Positions 1,128 to 11,593 of a stretch of 11,593 nucleotides of DNA are shown one piece after another; the stretch's first letter is position 1; every line of letters starts with the position of its first letter. Below the pieces are notes generated by a model. That model had not been told where the DNA came from and made no database searches. It worked only from the letters and a program-made list of their open reading frames with translations. The translations under genes and the position numbers were made by a program. The stretch is from a virus. Lineage: Duplodnaviria > Heunggongvirae > Uroviricota > Caudoviricetes. Location: the IMG/VR virus record IMGVR_UViG_2724679172_000001, positions 1-11,593 of that record; one strand, 5' to 3'.

Positions 1128-1203
1128 GGCCCCTTAGCTCAGTGGTTAGAGCTGGCGACTCATAATCGCACGGTCACCGGTTCAAGTCCGGTAGGGGCCA
1201 CCA
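1128..1203 (+). tRNA. tRNA with CAU anticodon; closely resembles enterobacterial tRNA-Ile2 (ileX/ileY type, lysidine-modified to read AUA); would be typed Met(CAT) by anticodon alone
   Basis: 76 nt: GGCCCCTTAGCTCAGTGGTTAGAG...GACTCATAATCGC...GGTTCAAGTCCGGTAGGGGCCACCA. 7-bp acceptor stem GGCCCCT with AGGGGCC, canonical D-arm, anticodon loop CTCATAA, T-arm GGTTCAAGTCC, encoded CCA. The 5' half matches E. coli ileX/ileY as I recall them. P1-like phages are known to carry a tRNA for the rare AUA codon. Confidence 0.85.
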
Positions 1204-2624: not shown

Positions 2625-2732
2625 TGTTAGATGAATGGAATTAATTTTCTAATATAACCAACTTTTTGCCAGTCTATACAGAAATAACATTCTCATTATC
2701 ATCCCCTCGGTCATTTCCTGCCTGGGGGATTA

Positions 2733-3125
2733 ATGGAGCATATCAGCAGCGCAGAAATTGCGGATATCATGATTAGGGCTGACTGCTATCTGACAGTCAC
2801 CGAAATCACCACTCTAGCTAAAGAAAAATATCCTCACCTTCATGTTTCACGCGTAAGTGTAACCAACATCATTCGGCATTTTGTGCGGTCAAGCCGAGCT
2901 ATTTGTGAGCTTGATGATCGTGTTTACCCACGGAAATACTGGTTGCATGGCCTGAACGGATATCAGTTCAAGGTGCGCGGGCGCACGCCTGAATACGGTA
3001 GCTTACTGGTTAAAAACTGTAGCAGGAAATCAGTCGAACAGGCGCGAAAAGAGCAACGAGAGCTGGTGGACATGGCGAATAAGCTGTGGAATGCCGCCGT
3101 TAAAAAGCGTGGTGTTGCTTTATGA
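2733..3125 (+). CDS. putative winged-helix DNA-binding protein; positional candidate for an Lpa-like late-promoter activator immediately upstream of pacA
   Basis: RBS GGGGGA 5 nt upstream of the ATG; stop overlaps the pacA start (ATGA at 3122-3125). Sequence LTVTEITTLAKEKYPHLHVSRVSVTNIIRH looks like an HTH. In P1, lpa lies directly upstream of pacA. The function is by synteny only. Confidence 0.45.
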   Translation: MEHISSAEIADIMIRADCYLTVTEITTLAKEKYPHLHVSRVSVTNIIRHFVRSSRAICELDDRVYPRKYWLHGLNGYQFKVRGRTPEYGSLLVKNCSRKSVEQARKEQRELVDMANKLWNAAVKKRGVAL

Positions 3126-4486: not shown

Positions 4487-5994
4487 TGGCTGGAGGGCGC
4501 AAGATTAAATGCGTCACCAGCGATCCACGCTGGCGCGATATGGTAATCAAATACCGCTACAACTTTACCCAGGCTGTTGTCGATATTTTTGGGATGTTCC
4601 CCTCCCACCAGCAGCAGCAGATCATTCAGTCCGTGCAGGAAACGGGGAGTAGGACGACCGTCACGTCCGGACACGGAACTGGGAAGTCGTCCCTTACCGC
4701 GATGTTGCTGTTGATTTTTATGATCCTGTTCCCCGATGCCCGTGTCATCATTGTTGCTAACAAGATAGGCCAGGTAAAAACAGGCGTATTCAAATACGTT
4801 AAACAGTATTGGGCGAATGCAGTTAAGCGTCATGGGTGGTTGCAGACCTATTTTGTCCTCTCTGACACCATGTTTTATGAGCGCTCCCGTAAGGGGATTT
4901 GGGAAGTTCTCTGCAAAGGTTATCGACTCGGCAACGAAGAAGCGCTGGCGGGGGAACATGCGGCACATTTGCTTCTAATTCTGGATGAAGCATCTGGTAT
5001 ATCTGATAAGGCGATCGGCGTAATGACCGGTGCTCTTACTGAAGAAGATAACCGGATGTTGATGCTATCCCAGCCAACAAGGCCAAGTGGTTATTTCTAC
5101 GATTCGCACCATTCTCAAGCAAAAACCCCAGACAACCCGAAAGGGATCTGGACAGCAATTGTTCTTAACTCGGAAGAATCACCGTTCGTCACACCACAAT
5201 TCATCAGGCAGAAGCTTCTGGAATATGGTGGGCGCGATTCTATTGAGTATATGGTCAAGGTGCTTGGTCAGTTCCCACGAGAAATTAACGGCTATTTGCT
5301 TGGTCGTGATGAATGCGATCGCGCTGCTCGCCGCAAGGTGTTGTTGGAGAAAAACTGGGGATGGGTGGCAACGGCTGACGTTGGTAATGGGCGAGATAAG
5401 TCGGTCCTCAACATCTGCAAGGTATCTGGTCACAGGGATAAGCGGCGCGTTGTTAACTTTAAGGTAATGGAGATGCCTGGCACTATGGACCCATTGGCCT
5501 TTGCTGACTTTATATATAACGAATGTACGCCGGAAAAATACCCGAATATAACAATCGCGGTTGATGCCGATGGTTTTGGTTCTGATACGTGTGCGCAGTT
5601 GGTACGTCGTGGTGCGAACCCGGTACGTATTCGGTGGGGAAAACCCATGTTTGCGAACAAAGACAGGGAGCGATTTGTTAATCAGCGTGCCTACGCAAAT
5701 ATTATGGCGCGTGATGCCATAAAGTCAGGGCGTATGCGGATAGACAGTGACCCTAAAACGGCAGAGCAAGCGTCAAAAATCCCCTTTTTACTGAATGAGG
5801 AAGGGAAAATGGCGATGATGCGCAAAGAGCACATGCGGCAAAAGCTAAACATCAAATCGCCTGACCGATGGGATACCTACTGCTTCACTATGCTGGTGGA
5901 CTATGTGCCTGCTAATGAAGATATTGGTGCCGAAATGGCAACTTTCCGAGATCAGGTTCTGGCGGATATCGAAATGCCGGATCTGGATATATAA
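4486..5994 (+). CDS. pacB: terminase large subunit (ATPase/nuclease), PacB-like
   Basis: Walker A VTSGHGTGKSS, Walker B LLLILDEASG, ~500 aa, directly downstream of and coupled to pacA. Gene order matches the P1 pacA-pacB arrangement. Confidence 0.85.
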   Translation: MAGGRKIKCVTSDPRWRDMVIKYRYNFTQAVVDIFGMFPSHQQQQIIQSVQETGSRTTVTSGHGTGKSSLTAMLLLIFMILFPDARVIIVANKIGQVKTGVFKYVKQYWANAVKRHGWLQTYFVLSDTMFYERSRKGIWEVLCKGYRLGNEEALAGEHAAHLLLILDEASGISDKAIGVMTGALTEEDNRMLMLSQPTRPSGYFYDSHHSQAKTPDNPKGIWTAIVLNSEESPFVTPQFIRQKLLEYGGRDSIEYMVKVLGQFPREINGYLLGRDECDRAARRKVLLEKNWGWVATADVGNGRDKSVLNICKVSGHRDKRRVVNFKVMEMPGTMDPLAFADFIYNECTPEKYPNITIAVDADGFGSDTCAQLVRRGANPVRIRWGKPMFANKDRERFVNQRAYANIMARDAIKSGRMRIDSDPKTAEQASKIPFLLNEEGKMAMMRKEHMRQKLNIKSPDRWDTYCFTMLVDYVPANEDIGAEMATFRDQVLADIEMPDLDI

Positions 5995-5996
5995 AA

Positions 5997-6013
5997 GCCC
6001 CGCGATGCGGGGC
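5997..6013. terminator. GC-rich hairpin between convergent genes (pacB on plus, 345-aa gene on minus); likely bidirectional intrinsic terminator
   Basis: GCCCCGC (5997-6003), loop GAT, GCGGGGC (6007-6013): perfect 7-bp stem. An A-run lies just upstream on the plus strand, which is a U-tract for minus-strand transcripts. Confidence 0.5.
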
Positions 6014-6022
6014 CGGTTGTGA

Positions 6023-7060
6023 TTACCAGAGCTTCGCGGCGTACTGCGTTTGGGGGAATGTGTATCCGTAACGTTCTTCGATTGCTTTGCCGTATTTTTT
6101 ACGAGCTTCATTCAGTTTAATGCCGGTCAGGTCGTCTCCAGAGGCCATCATTACGTCTAACAATTCCAGATCCATTTTATCCAACCTTGCCATTGCTTCA
6201 CGTGATGTACGTATCTTACGTTCAATGATATGGCGAATAGCCGGATCGGCATCCTCCAGCATCTTAGCGGATTTCTGCTTAAGGCTTTCATTGCGAATAT
6301 CGATGTTCCTTAAGATGTACGACTTCGCAACGTAGCTTGGCTGGTGTTTTTCCAGGTCACGAACACGATATAAGTTAAAATCGCCGAGAAGGCTGCATGG
6401 TACCGATTCGACGCCAGAATAAATTGTAATGCTCCGGCGTTCACCAACATTATTGACAACGGGGATCGTTGTCTTCGGTAGTCTTGCGAAAACCAATGCG
6501 CCATGTGCGCCAACTCTAAAGCGAGAAAGGGCATTGCTGCCTTCGATGTTTGTTGTCAGCACAACATCTGTATATGCCTCTTTACGCGCCCGGTAGATCT
6601 CGCCTTCAGGCTCAGCTTCAAAGAAGCGCTGTTCTTCTTCAAGAGCACCTACGATTTGAGAAAAAACCCTATTTTTCAGGCTTTTCTTTATGATTTTGTC
6701 GTATTTTTTTAGCAATTGTTCACGTGTAAATGTACGTGTTGTTGTAGCGCTTTGCACAACGACATGCGTGCTTTGATTGGTGTCCTCAATGATGAATGGG
6801 ATCGGAGAATATACAGACTCAACAATGTTCGACGCTTTGCCGTCGGCATCGCGGCACATGTCAACGAAGGCTTTCCATTCAGCAAGACATTTTTCAGCTT
6901 CTTCTAATATGTTTTGGTCATGCGTTAATGCAACATGGCGGAATTCCTCGCCAGCATAACTGGTATCATGGAAAACAGAGTTTGCGACCACCAGCTCTTT
7001 CCACCGTTCAGCGGTTTGCAGGAACCGTTTGTACTCTTTCTCGATCGACTTCTTACTCAT
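6023..7060 (-). CDS. hypothetical protein (345 aa) occupying the position of the P1 c1 immunity repressor (convergent with pacB, adjacent to the lox-type site); function unassigned
   Basis: Long ORF on the minus strand with an RBS-like AGGAAT before the ATG (reverse complement of 7061-7071). No catalytic motif recognised. I could not see convincing similarity to the P1 C1 sequence as I remember it. Looks somewhat more AT-rich than its neighbours by eye. Confidence 0.65.
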   Translation of the reverse strand: MSKKSIEKEYKRFLQTAERWKELVVANSVFHDTSYAGEEFRHVALTHDQNILEEAEKCLAEWKAFVDMCRDADGKASNIVESVYSPIPFIIEDTNQSTHVVVQSATTTRTFTREQLLKKYDKIIKKSLKNRVFSQIVGALEEEQRFFEAEPEGEIYRARKEAYTDVVLTTNIEGSNALSRFRVGAHGALVFARLPKTTIPVVNNVGERRSITIYSGVESVPCSLLGDFNLYRVRDLEKHQPSYVAKSYILRNIDIRNESLKQKSAKMLEDADPAIRHIIERKIRTSREAMARLDKMDLELLDVMMASGDDLTGIKLNEARKKYGKAIEERYGYTFPQTQYAAKLW

Positions 7061-7270
7061 TATTCCTACTCGATTTAGTTTTCTAACATAAAATTACTAT
7101 GACAAATTTATGTCGAATAACAGGGTGAGTAAAGGATCGAACTGTGATTTTTTGTCATCAATTTTAGAAAACCAACCGTAGAAACCACACTTCGCAAATT
7201 AAAGACCATGAAGGCAACGTGTTACTGGTCATCATCAATCTATGATGGATTAAAAAAAATCGGCATTTTA

Positions 7271-7302
7271 TAACTTTAAATAATTGGCATTATTTAAAGT
7301 TA
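7271..7302. other. rox-type recombination target site for the adjacent Dre recombinase (14-bp inverted repeats around a 4-bp spacer)
   Basis: TAACTTTAAATAAT TGGC ATTATTTAAAGTTA: the right arm is the exact reverse complement of the left arm. The 32-bp sequence is the reverse complement of the rox site as I recall it (TAACTTTAAATAATGCCAATTATTTAAAGTTA). The outer ATAACTT also matches the loxP arm start. Lies ~150 bp upstream of the recombinase gene. Confidence 0.85.
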
Positions 7303-7311
7303 GGCTATAAT
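7284..7311 (+). promoter_or_regulatory. candidate sigma70-type promoter overlapping the rox site and reading toward dre
   Basis: -35 TTGGCA (7284-7289, spanning the rox spacer), 16-bp spacer, -10 TATAAT (7306-7311). Recombinase binding at rox would be expected to occlude it. Confidence 0.35.
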
Positions 7312-7454
7312 CATGGGTAGATGATCAGTGTTGACATTACTAAAAATACGTGTCTCGAATCAAAGGCTTGTATTTTGAAAATTAACTTGTAGCTACCCTG
7401 TCATTTTTATATTTTTCGCGTAGCGTCATCTGTATATAGAGGCGAAATAGTTTC

Positions 7455-8483
7455 ATGAGTGAATTAATTATCTCTGGCAGTTCCGGTGGTTTTCTGCGCA
7501 ACATTGGCAAAGAGTACCAGGAAGCCGCAGAAAACTTTATGCGGTTCATGAATGACCAGGGGGCTTACGCGCCGAATACTTTGCGCGATCTCCGGTTAGT
7601 GTTTCACTCCTGGGCGCGATGGTGCCACGCTCGCCAGCTCGCCTGGTTCCCGATCTCACCAGAGATGGCCCGCGAGTATTTTCTTCAGCTGCATGATGCT
7701 GATCTGGCTTCGACCACCATTGATAAGCACTACGCCATGCTTAACATGCTGCTTTCGCATTGTGGCCTTCCGCCACTTTCGGATGATAAAAGTGTTTCTC
7801 TGGCTATGCGGCGCATCCGGCGCGAAGCGGCAACGGAAAAAGGCGAACGAACAGGCCAGGCTATACCGCTGCGGTGGGACGATCTGAAACTGCTCGACGT
7901 CCTGTTGTCCAGGTCAGAACGGCTGGTGGACCTGCGTAACCGGGCTTTCCTCTTCGTTGCATACAATACGCTGATGCGAATGTCTGAAATCTCGCGTATT
8001 CGTGTAGGAGATCTGGACCAAACAGGTGACGCTGTCACGCTACATATTTCACACACGAAGACAATAACGACCGCCGCCGGGCTTGATAAGGTGCTTTCCC
8101 GTCGCACTACCGCAGTGCTGAATGACTGGCTGGATGTTTCCGGGCTTCGTGAATATCCTGACGCGGTGCTGTTCCCGCCGATACACCGTAGCAATAAAGC
8201 CAGGATTACGACAACTCCCCTTACTGCACCTGCAATGGAGAAAATATTCAGCGACGCCTGGGTGTTGCTGAATAAAAGGGATGCCGCGCCAAACAAAGGG
8301 AGATACCGGACGTGGACCGGGCATAGTGCTCGTGTCGGGGCCGCTATCGATATGGCTGAAAAGCAGGTGTCTATGGTGGAGATCATGCAGGAAGGAACCT
8401 GGAAGAAACCGGAAACACTTATGCGGTATCTGCGCCGTGGCGGCGTGTCTGTGGGGGCTAATAGCCGCTTGATGGATTCGTAA
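7455..8483 (+). CDS. dre: Cre-family tyrosine site-specific recombinase, Dre
   Basis: 342 aa. Aligns along its length with P1 Cre from memory (for example HSWARWCHARQLAWFP against RSWAAWCKLNNRKWFP; LSDDKSVSLAMRRIRRE against PSDSNAVSLVMRRIRKE; GHSARVGAAIDMA against GHSARVGAARDMA; catalytic Tyr in LMRYL). The N-terminus MSELIISGSSGGFLRNIGKEYQEAAENF matches Dre of phage D6 as I recall it. A perfect rox site lies upstream. Confidence 0.9.
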   Translation: MSELIISGSSGGFLRNIGKEYQEAAENFMRFMNDQGAYAPNTLRDLRLVFHSWARWCHARQLAWFPISPEMAREYFLQLHDADLASTTIDKHYAMLNMLLSHCGLPPLSDDKSVSLAMRRIRREAATEKGERTGQAIPLRWDDLKLLDVLLSRSERLVDLRNRAFLFVAYNTLMRMSEISRIRVGDLDQTGDAVTLHISHTKTITTAAGLDKVLSRRTTAVLNDWLDVSGLREYPDAVLFPPIHRSNKARITTTPLTAPAMEKIFSDAWVLLNKRDAAPNKGRYRTWTGHSARVGAAIDMAEKQVSMVEIMQEGTWKKPETLMRYLRRGGVSVGANSRLMDS

Positions 8484-8544
8484 ATTAAATTTCTAACACA
8501 TCTTTTTAGATTGATATCTTTGCTGTAAAGTACCCTCGCCTATT

Positions 8545-8901
8545 TTGGAGGGTGCTTTGCAGAGTCAAATCACGGAATCAAGACGCTTCACGGTGGATGG
8601 TTACACCGTAACCTTCGCCGCTGGTGTTAAGAACAGTCATGCTGTCGTTGTATTCGGCATCATGACCGGGCTTGAGGCCGTCCCTGTGTTTACCCTCGAA
8701 AAAAACTGGCGAAATCTGGAGGAAGCGGAAAGCTACGTCCGGAAAGTAACCATCATTGCCGCCGAAAAACTCCTGGCTCACTATCAGGAAAATTATCGCA
8801 CTATGGTCGAGAAAATTAATCTCGCTTTCACTCGCCCCACTACAGGCTTCATCGCACCGGAGACTAATACAGGTCGCTATCCTGCAAGGGGGCGTCGGTG
8901 A
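8545..8901 (+). CDS. hypothetical protein (up to 118 aa; start uncertain), first gene of the post-dre operon
   Basis: ORF in the track. The 8545 start is a TTG; an in-frame TTG at 8557 is preceded by GGAGGG (8547-8552); in-frame GTG at 8593 and ATG at 8662 are alternatives. Stop TGA at 8899-8901 overlaps the GTG start of the next ORF. Confidence 0.45.
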   Translation: MEGALQSQITESRRFTVDGYTVTFAAGVKNSHAVVVFGIMTGLEAVPVFTLEKNWRNLEEAESYVRKVTIIAAEKLLAHYQENYRTMVEKINLAFTRPTTGFIAPETNTGRYPARGRR

Positions 8902-9879: not shown

Positions 9880-10542
9880 ATGGTCAGCACTTTTCAGGTG
9901 TTCCCCAAATACAAATGCCACAGCATCATTCGGGCATCGAAAATCAAAGATATTGTTATTGTCGGCAAAGCTTATGCGCCCATTTTTGGCAGTATCGAAG
10001 TCGTTGAGCCAAAAGGAATGACGCTTCGTGTTGATGGTGTGTTCTTGGAAAAATTCCGACCGCAAATAGGAGGATATCTCGTCACTGCTGAAAATGGCTA
10101 TCTGGTCTATGTGCCAGAGAAAGCATTTGAAAAATGCTATAGCCGGGTTAACGACGCCTCCGAAAATGGGGTATCGCTCAGCATTGAAGGTCACAATGGG
10201 GTGACATTCATTACAGCCAGGGACGTAACTATTTCTGCTGGCGGTATCGCTACTCTACAAGAAGAAATCGACCTTGAAGCAGCCGACTTTTCTGACGCGC
10301 TGATGTGGCTGAAGGATGGCAAGAAAGTTGCCCGGCGCGGGTGGAACGGCGAAAACCAATTCTGCTGGCTGGTTCCTGAAGGACAGTACCCGGCACGAAT
10401 GGAAGCCATTAAGGGATATTTCCCCGGCGATCTCGTTCCGTATGGTGCTTATTTCGCCTTAAAAAATGCACAAGGTGTAGTTGTTCCGTGGGTGCCTTCG
10501 GTAGGCGACTTACTGGCGTGTGACTGGTTTGTAGTGGAGTGA
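9880..10542 (+). CDS. two-domain protein (220 aa): N-terminal domain of unknown function plus C-terminal DUF2829/Tad2-like domain
   Basis: Strong RBS AGGAAGG before the ATG. C-terminal FSDALMWLKDGKKVARRGWNGENQF ... VVPWVPSVGDLLACDWFVVE fits the DUF2829 signature as I recall it (F-EAL-ALK-GKKV-R-GWNG ... LA-DW-IV) and is paralogous to the C-terminus of the 1657-2232 product. Confidence 0.65.
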   Translation: MVSTFQVFPKYKCHSIIRASKIKDIVIVGKAYAPIFGSIEVVEPKGMTLRVDGVFLEKFRPQIGGYLVTAENGYLVYVPEKAFEKCYSRVNDASENGVSLSIEGHNGVTFITARDVTISAGGIATLQEEIDLEAADFSDALMWLKDGKKVARRGWNGENQFCWLVPEGQYPARMEAIKGYFPGDLVPYGAYFALKNAQGVVVPWVPSVGDLLACDWFVVE

Positions 10543-10548
10543 TTTGAC

Positions 10549-11349
10549 ATGGAAAGCACCAAAACAATTCAATACCGCTTGCGTAATGGCCTGCTGGTGG
10601 CTGTTAACGCTGATATGTCACTGCCGTTTGACACGATAGAACGCACTATCATGACGTATCTCGGCTTTAATGAAGAGCTGAATGAAGAGCATGGCGTAGC
10701 TATATGGAGTGATGCAGAAAGCGGCGTTCATCGTTACATCACCGCCAGGGGCAAAGACTACTCTCTGGAAGAACTGTTTACCCTTGCACAGTCTTTCGAA
10801 TGTGTAGCATTAGACATGTTTAATGATCCTGCTATAGCGCAACGACTTATACGCGAGCTTGGACTATCCGTTACACCAATTATCTTTAAGAATGGCAGCC
10901 TGACTGGCACATGGCGCGTAGAACGCATCTCAAACTACCTTCCATATAACCGACAGTTAAATGGAGTAATCTCCGGCGTTAATCAGCCCGTAGCGTGTGA
11001 AAATGTAAACCTGGTTGCCGCTGTTTTGGCAACCGCATGTCGTGTTATCGGTTTGGCTAAACAGGCTTTTATTCATTTCCCAAATGGTGCAGAAGGTAGC
11101 GCAGAGATTATCGCGTGTGATTTCGAATTTACCTGGATGCTACGCGAATATCTGGACCAAACAGTGTTCCGCGCCGAAGAACTGGATATGTATATCACGT
11201 CAACGATTCCTGATGATGTGCGTGCTGAAGCAATCGCCACAGCAAGGGCCAAATGCCGTGCGGCGATTGCAGAGCAGGCCAAAGAAGAACCGTCCGATGA
11301 AGCCGTGGCTGATGTTGAAGCAGAGGTAGCGGAGGATGCTGACGCCTAA
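10549..11349 (+). CDS. hypothetical acidic protein (266 aa) with a poly-acidic C-terminal tail
   Basis: ORF with GGAG 9 nt upstream. By my hand count about 41 Asp+Glu against 22 Lys+Arg. C-terminus EEPSDEAVADVEAEVAEDADA. Last gene of the operon; followed by an intrinsic terminator. Confidence 0.6.
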   Translation: MESTKTIQYRLRNGLLVAVNADMSLPFDTIERTIMTYLGFNEELNEEHGVAIWSDAESGVHRYITARGKDYSLEELFTLAQSFECVALDMFNDPAIAQRLIRELGLSVTPIIFKNGSLTGTWRVERISNYLPYNRQLNGVISGVNQPVACENVNLVAAVLATACRVIGLAKQAFIHFPNGAEGSAEIIACDFEFTWMLREYLDQTVFRAEELDMYITSTIPDDVRAEAIATARAKCRAAIAEQAKEEPSDEAVADVEAEVAEDADA

Positions 11350-11404
11350 AAACATCACCGAATTAGCTGGCTGACAGCAGAAAAAATCATTGAGTGATAG
11401 TAGG

Positions 11405-11434
11405 AAGCCCGCCTGGTTGAGCGGGCTTCTTTTC
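11405..11434 (+). terminator. intrinsic terminator closing the post-dre operon (also immediately downstream of the convergent doc gene)
   Basis: AAGCCCGC (11405-11412), loop CTGGTTGA, GCGGGCTT (11421-11428), followed by CTTTTC. 8-bp stem plus T-tract. Confidence 0.6.
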
Positions 11435-11593
11435 AAATATTGGAACCAAATAATTCACGTAGTTTTTCCGCTACTGAAGATACGGGGATTTCACCAGTTG
11501 CGGCCCCCACCGCAAGTTCCACCAGCACGGGAGAATCATATACCTGTATACCGTTACGGCGTAGAAATAGCAGCGCACTGTTTAGCGCGGTAC
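11433..11593 (-). CDS. doc: Doc toxin (Fic-family kinase of the phd-doc addiction module), C-terminal part; gene continues beyond the window end
   Basis: Reverse-strand translation reads ...TALNSALLFLRRNGIQVYDSPVLVELAVGAATGEIPVSSVAEKLRELFGSNI*, which matches the C-terminus of P1 Doc as I recall it (...TALNSALLFLRRNGVQVFDSPVLADLTVGAATGEISVSSVADTLRRLYGSAE). Stop is the reverse complement of 11433-11435. Truncated by the window edge, so absent from the ORF track. Confidence 0.8.
   Translation of the reverse strand, partial: TALNSALLFLRRNGIQVYDSPVLVELAVGAATGEIPVSSVAEKLRELFGSNI

Follow-up and report, generated by a model that had tools for sequence, protein, structure and literature searches.

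A distant C1 repressor homologue of a D6-like plasmid prophage, its candidate operator set and a predicted Tus-like fold

The open reading frame at positions 6023..7060 (minus strand) of the viral DNA analysed here, a stretch of 11,593 nucleotides that we refer to as the window, is very probably c1 of a D6-like plasmid prophage and encodes a maintenance (immunity) repressor that is a distant homologue of the C1 proteins of P1 and P7. The gene, whose coordinates include the stop codon, opens with an ATG and specifies a D6-type C1 prophage repressor of 345 amino acids. Its identity is already known, as it has been annotated as D6 c1 since 2004, when the dre/rox system was described. Taken together, our results describe a known gene; its product belongs to a diverged subtype of otherwise ordinary immunity repressors and apparently recognises an operator set of its own. 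This operator set, the C-terminal domain of the protein and the Tus-like fold predicted for its core exceed the GenBank annotation of D6.

The only matches of positions 5800-7500 of the window in a megablast search were records of Escherichia phage D6, namely AY753669 (“immC region”, 99.0% identical) and the complete genome MF356679/NC_050154 (99.6% identical). Aligned with MF356679 from end to end, the window shows about 96% identity, and two segments, 9883-10219 and 11301-11475, are replaced and not alignable. This level of identity and the two replaced segments indicate that the source is a D6-like plasmid prophage and not reference D6. ORF 9880..10542 encodes 220 aa in the window versus 146 aa for D6 orf114. 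The protein encoded at 6023..7060 is 100% identical to AAV84948 and ASR76322, and the annotation of this ORF in AY753669 and MF356679 is c1 / “prophage repressor, similar to P1 C1”. The neighbours of the gene in both records are pacB on one side and rox with dre on the other. In 2004 Sauer and McDermott reportedly recognised that D6 has terminase, C1 and recombinase genes related to those of P1, and are said to have described D6 as strongly diverged from P1, with deletions or substitutions. The D6-type c1 locus is carried by 125 plasmid records and matched by 196, and D6-like plasmid prophages are thus common in E. coli and Salmonella.

The location of D6 c1 is the immC position, between pacB and a lox/rox-type recombination site. 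In accordance with the initial annotation, a single minus-strand ORF of 345 aa fills the space between pacB and rox. It is preceded by an AGGA ribosome-binding site (7064-7067, minus strand) and separated from the convergent pacB gene, which ends at 5994, by a G+C-rich hairpin (5996-6014) that is terminator-like on the minus strand. The rox site of the Dre recombinase, TAACTTTAAATAATTGGCATTATTTAAAGTTA (7271-7302), is annotated in AY753669; it lies 210 bp from the start of c1 and has only three variable columns across the D6-like plasmids aligned. The dre tyrosine recombinase gene (7455..8483, plus strand) starts 394 bp from the start of c1. P1 c1 and D6 c1 occupy equal genome positions, both being convergent with pacB and beside a site-specific recombination site. 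The order recombinase gene, gap of about 400-450 bp, c1, pacB, pacA, lpa is also kept in two metagenomic elements, L013 and L014, whose C1 proteins are only 51% and 44% identical to D6 C1, respectively.

The relationship between D6 C1 and P1 C1 (283 aa) is detectable by pairwise BLASTP over aa 7-237, with 21% identity (E 2e-8). Both proteins match phrog_1678, D6 C1 at profile positions 2-347 (E 3e-170) and P1 C1 at positions 1-280 (E 3e-140). In precomputed annotations, PF27008 (Phage_P7_repressor_C1) is present in all relatives of both proteins; it appears in those annotations only, and a search of a local copy of Pfam gave no match for D6 C1 or for P1 C1. The NCBIfam equivalog NF041318 (phage_rep_C1) matches aa 7-240 of D6 C1 with 25.4 bits (E 9e-6), far short of its equivalog cut-off of 500 bits, and we therefore infer a function equivalent to that of P1 C1 from distant homology and context. 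The profile comparison with P1 C1 that the initial annotation had proposed thus bears out homology over about 240 aa and stops below the equivalog level. Judged by sequence, D6 C1 is a distant subfamily member of the C1 family and not an equivalog. When 20 D6-type and P1-type sequences were aligned, they proved collinear and shared 15 invariant columns. Only 84 clusters emerged from an exhaustive profile search of 1.84 billion representative proteins, which indicates that the C1 family is small, and in this search the D6-type profile recovered P1-type proteins. Most of the clusters are 250-300 aa long and span only profile positions ~5-245, and about 12 are long forms that reach profile position ~340.

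These comparisons divide the protein into two parts. The module common to P1/P7 C1 and D6 C1 comprises codons 1 to ~240 (6341..7060, minus strand), is homologous throughout at about 20% identity, and is predicted to have a Tus-like alpha/beta DNA-binding fold. The remainder, codons ~241-345 (6026..6340, minus strand), is a helical C-terminal extension found in the D6 subfamily only: its ~100 residues are conserved among D6-type proteins and absent from P1-type C1, and no family match was found for them. D6 C1 is 62 aa longer than P1 C1, which carries a basic tail of about 40 aa where D6 C1 has the helical region. In the AlphaFold2 model the C-terminal helices comprise residues 233-269, 276-307 and 316-342, with pLDDT values of 86-95. 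We considered whether the extension could be a fused P1 Lxc and rejected this, as there is no similarity between the two. Conservation of D6-type C1 covers the full length of the protein (44 to 100% identity in many plasmids), and eight D6-type sequences share 78 invariant columns, the C-terminal part included.

The surroundings of c1 differ from those in P1, where coi, imcB, imcA, lox and cra, together with five C1 operators, occupy the counterpart interval. There are no ORFs of at least 34 aa between D6 c1 and rox, and dre is 394 bp away, in keeping with the earlier proposal that the coi/imcBA space has collapsed to about 400 bp. When P1 Coi, ImcA, ImcB and Lxc were compared with the whole 91-kb D6 genome by tblastn, the best E value was 0.48. 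Lxc also went undetected in a D6-like plasmid, and its absence has been taken to suggest that the control of lysogeny in D6-like phages departs in major ways from that of P1 (PMC6799933). The annotation of D6 contains two icd-antirepressor modules and no other repressor candidate. In P1, Lxc is a co-repressor that brings about tighter operator binding and looping, and Coi is the inactivator of C1. No homologue of either was found in D6, where their functions must come some other way. The absence of coi, imcA and imcB, along with collinear homology over about 240 aa, supports the initial reading of the gene as a strongly diverged C1-type repressor with an altered circuit.

The P1 operator ATTGCTCTAATAAATTT has no match at up to three mismatches in the window and none that is meaningful at up to four mismatches in the D6 genome, where its 11-bp core has 0 matches at up to one mismatch. 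P1-type operator sites are thus absent from both the window and D6. MF356679 annotates no protein-binding sites, and a search for a LexA box in 7001-7500 gave no match. For motif discovery, each 14-mer of the c1-dre intergenic region was counted genome-wide with mismatches. The 14-mer TGTTAGAAAACTAA, just upstream of c1, has 16 matches in D6 at up to two mismatches, compared to 0.8 expected (maximum 5) from Markov-simulated genomes; when the count is limited to intergenic DNA, 13 matches remain compared to 0.13 expected. A position weight matrix (PWM) made from these sites adds two strong copies and brings the set to 17 D6 sites scoring at least 15, with the caveat that the scores are partly circular because the matrix comes from the same sites; only the number of 14-mer matches, the bias towards intergenic DNA and the conservation across elements are independent of it. 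All 17 sites are intergenic, compared with an intergenic share of 10.2% of the genome (binomial P = 1e-17).

The consensus of the motif, ttTgTGTTAGAAAAyTAA (TTArTTTTCTAACAcAaa on the other strand), is asymmetric and about 18 bp long. Sites are found in or close to the DNA upstream of c1 (two), lpa, repL, ref, mat/simB, hrdC, pmgS and pdcB, in the region upstream of the icd-antirepressor genes and just past dre. Several of these positions are places of C1 operators in P1, whose asymmetric operators of about 17 bp are numerous and scattered, with examples at c1, lpa, ref, mat, repL and immI; the D6 candidate sites are at equivalent genes. The operators of P1 differ in sequence, and no site of the P1 type occurs in D6, yet a core of about 5 bp, TCTAA, is common to ATTGCTCTAATAAATTT and the D6 motif when the latter is written in the P1 convention, the reading in which the two align best. 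Overlapping inverted pairs of the motif, with an offset of 17 bp, lie upstream of hrdC and pdcB at MF356679 64112-64149 (starts 64112/64129) and 80705-80742 (starts 80705/80722), or 19112-19149 and 35705-35742 in L006 numbering. These two pairs look like the bivalent C1 operators of P1. On this basis we regard the 17 motif sites as a candidate C1 operator set, to which C1 would bind.

Within the window, two copies of the motif lie at some distance from c1. One (2638-2658, minus strand, PWM 20.9) is upstream of lpa (2733-3125), at the position of Olpa, and, read in the P1 convention, its orientation relative to lpa matches that of P1 Olpa. It is 17 bp upstream of, and does not overlap, the sole promoter-like site there. 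The other (8482-8502, minus strand, PWM 24.7) overlaps the stop codon of dre and lies before the operon that follows (orf117, orf116, dut), the ORFs of which begin at 8545. The same arrangement at the end of the recombinase gene is present in L013 (8416-8436) and L014 (8456-8476). In both of these elements, one copy of the motif immediately precedes c1 and a second lies about 86-98 bp beyond it on the upstream side; further copies are located ahead of lpa and past the recombinase gene.

The two copies next to c1 bear directly on the possible control of the gene. The top-scoring one, O1 (TTTATGTTAGAAAACTAAATC, 7072-7092, minus strand, PWM 26), is 12 bp upstream of the c1 ATG and is a candidate C1 operator for autoregulation. 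In an intergenic alignment of the window and four D6-like plasmids, which are 70-87% identical in this region, O1 is nearly invariant across the five elements (two variable columns), and it is placed alike in L013 and L014. The c1 ribosome-binding site is almost invariant in the same alignment. O2 is a weaker copy in the opposite orientation (7158-7178, plus strand, PWM 15), with a core, TTAGAAAA (7164-7171), that does not vary although the sequence around it has diverged. From the O1 core to the O2 core there are 85-86 bp in six elements and 98 bp in L014, the most distant one (the O1-O2 spans are 7072-7178 in the window, 9877-9984 in L013 and 9871-9990 in L014). The spacing in L014 is longer by about one helical turn, which hints at a phase-dependent interaction between O1 and O2.

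Between the two sites is a putative c1 promoter (7105..7133, minus strand) that consists of a -35 element TTTACT (7133-7128), a 17-nt spacer and a -10 element TAAATT (7110-7105). It agrees with the consensus at 8 of 12 positions and was missed by a consensus promoter scan. Its columns are conserved in the alignment of D6-like plasmids; L013 has identical hexamers and spacing, and L014 has TTTACG-17-TATAGA. O1 would lie at about +6 to +26 of this promoter. In P1 the c1 operator is over the -35 element, whereas O1 of D6 is downstream of the -10 element and 12 bp from the ATG. The initial annotation had proposed a different operator, the inverted repeat ACATAAA-N14-TTTATGT at 7086-7113. The repeat is indeed present (arms 7086-7092 and 7107-7113), but it does not hold up as an operator unit: only its left arm, which is the edge of O1, falls within that site, and its right arm overlaps the putative -10 element. 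In D6-like plasmids the right arm reads TCTATGC, TTTATGC or TTTAAGC, and 30% of shuffles would be expected to contain one such 7-bp inverted repeat within 7061-7270 by chance (P = 0.30). We rejected the repeat as an operator because it is not conserved, is within chance and is not repeated elsewhere.

Several other explanations of the gene and of the motif deserve consideration. An unrelated superinfection-exclusion or abortive-infection protein in the c1 slot, the replacement gene suggested in the initial annotation, might account for the additional 62 aa relative to P1 C1, for the lack of a match in the local copy of Pfam, and for the fact that tblastn of D6 C1 against 50,697 phage records found D6 itself only. 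Against this, four independent comparisons agree on collinear homology to P1/P7 C1 over about 240 aa, no family (0) in PADLOC-DB matches at E ≤0.1, the order of genes is conserved in distant relatives, and an operator-like motif site precedes c1. Given that the protein is a C1 homologue without a PADLOC match, we consider the probability of a replacement gene to be close to nil. It could also be argued that this homologue is a decayed or repurposed relative of C1 and that another gene carries the immunity of D6-like elements, given the ~20% identity to P1 C1, the loss of coi, imcA/B and lxc, and the suggestion of major differences in lysogeny control where Lxc is missing (PMC6799933). The full-length conservation at 44 to 100% identity, the 78 invariant columns among eight sequences, the presence of the locus in 125 plasmid records, the intact motif network and the lack of a second repressor candidate in the D6 annotation make such decay or repurposing very improbable.

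For the motif, the alternative is that the protein is a C1 homologue but the TGTTAGAAAA sites belong to another factor, such as a late-gene activator or a host protein, with the true operator elsewhere, for example at 7086-7113. The existence of the inverted repeat and the position of the lpa copy, upstream of the only promoter-like site and not on top of it, are compatible with this possibility. Counter to this, copies of the motif precede c1 itself, lpa (the late activator gene) and further P1 operator positions; the TCTAA core and the orientation at lpa match the P1 operator; and the repeat, as noted above, is unconserved, unrepeated and at chance level. We also evaluated the motif as a late-promoter box and rejected this, as it has no resemblance to the P1 -22 box (A/T)GTGACTT. 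Overall, recognition of the motif by another factor seems unlikely, and we favour the reading of the sites as candidate operators of D6 C1.

A model of the D6 C1 structure may clarify how such asymmetric sites are read. The AlphaFold2 model, built from the 20-sequence alignment, is a confident one (mean pLDDT 85, pTM 0.54) and has an alpha/beta body, two long strands (99-112 and 155-170) and then the long C-terminal helices. In a Foldseek comparison with solved structures, the sole matches at E ≤0.001 were four entries of Tus, the replication terminus-binding protein of E. coli (PDB 1ecr and 4xr0-4xr2; Pfam PF05472), with E 2.7e-8 and probability 1.00 for the top match and TM scores of 0.38-0.44. 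Two hhalign runs placed D6 C1 87-198 opposite Tus 147-270 with a probability of only 13-15%, and the link to Tus therefore rests on the predicted structure. PF05472 is touched by two of 62 C1 family members (best E 0.012), and no other Pfam family is touched by more than a single member. The evidence from sequence is weak, yet it agrees in direction with the structural match. As a separate observation, R157 and R159, which are invariant in the family, lie on the long strand and are opposite Tus 227-244 in the hhalign alignment. Searches of PDB sequences with C1 family profiles returned chance coiled-coil or LigA matches only and no Tus, the BFVD library of viral structures gave no significant match, and a search for Tus homologues retrieved only sequences more than 80% identical. 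We thus predict that the D6 C1 core has a Tus-like fold, at TM scores of 0.38-0.44, and do not claim membership of the Tus family.

The two proteins have different roles, Tus being a replication fork barrier and D6 C1 a transcription repressor, and they share no significant sequence similarity. Tus binds its asymmetric Ter site as a monomer via interdomain beta-strands, and monomeric binding to asymmetric operators is also known for P1 C1. Since both act as monomers on asymmetric sites, the resemblance is mechanistically sensible. No mention of a link between C1 and Tus was found in the searchable literature. If true, the Tus-like fold would be the first structural rationale for the reading of asymmetric sites by C1 repressors.

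From these observations a picture of immunity in D6-like prophages can be assembled. The N-terminal ~240 residues of C1, predicted to be Tus-like, would constitute a DNA-binding body that recognises asymmetric sites of about 18 bp of the TGTTAGAAAA type. Occupation of ~17 such sites before lpa, repL, ref, mat, hrdC, the icd/antirepressor region and the post-dre operon would keep the prophage silent, and C1 would also repress lytic replication and other early genes. Expression of c1 would come from a weak promoter; as O1 is just downstream of it, C1 bound there would limit its own synthesis, and O2 may assist. Given a specificity unlike that of P1 and the lack of a P1-type operator in D6, the two phages should be heteroimmune. 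With Coi, ImcA/B and Lxc absent, it would fall to the two icd-antirepressor modules to bring about induction. The data establish the homology, the synteny, the repeated motif with its conservation, and the lack of coi, imcA, imcB and lxc; we infer the binding of C1 to the motif, the mode of induction, the position of the promoter, the binding stoichiometry, the oligomeric state and the immunity conferred by D6 C1.

Given the conserved spacing of O1 and O2 and the added helical domain, self-association or looping may stand in for Lxc. One tentative and somewhat doubtful extension of this idea is that the C-terminal helical module lets D6 C1 self-associate, bridge O1 and O2 and replace Lxc, making coi and imcAB dispensable, and that the C1 family may be one of Tus-fold repressors, which would account for its monomeric binding to asymmetric operators. 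Neither a Tus-fold C1 nor an Lxc-replacing module was found in the searchable literature.

The resulting picture of D6 immunity is testable: it defines a consensus for the operator and maps the sites, predicts that D6 and P1 are heteroimmune, and has a simpler circuit without Coi and Lxc. Since D6-like plasmid prophages are common, the repressor/operator pair should help to annotate and engineer them. It would also supply an orthogonal repressor/operator pair beside the widely used Dre/rox tool.

Other features of the window may be mentioned briefly. ARAGORN places a tRNA-Ser(UGA) at 56-142 on the plus strand, and the annotation in MF356679 corresponds to the minus strand. This candidate is below the Rfam gathering score, and either the strand in the record or the gene call is doubtful. 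At 1128-1203 (plus strand), ARAGORN and Rfam (RF00005, 66 bits) both detected a tRNA gene whose anticodon is CAT (Met, or Ile if lysidine-modified); its counterpart in MF356679, at ~6084-6159 in the orf6-tciB gap, is without annotation. Finally, a strong sigma-70-like promoter that points at dre (7284-7311, plus strand; TTGGCA-16-TATAAT) agrees with the consensus at 11 of 12 positions. Its -35 hexamer falls within rox, and five D6-like plasmids conserve the promoter. Recombination at rox would leave this promoter unchanged, and Dre bound to rox could occlude it.
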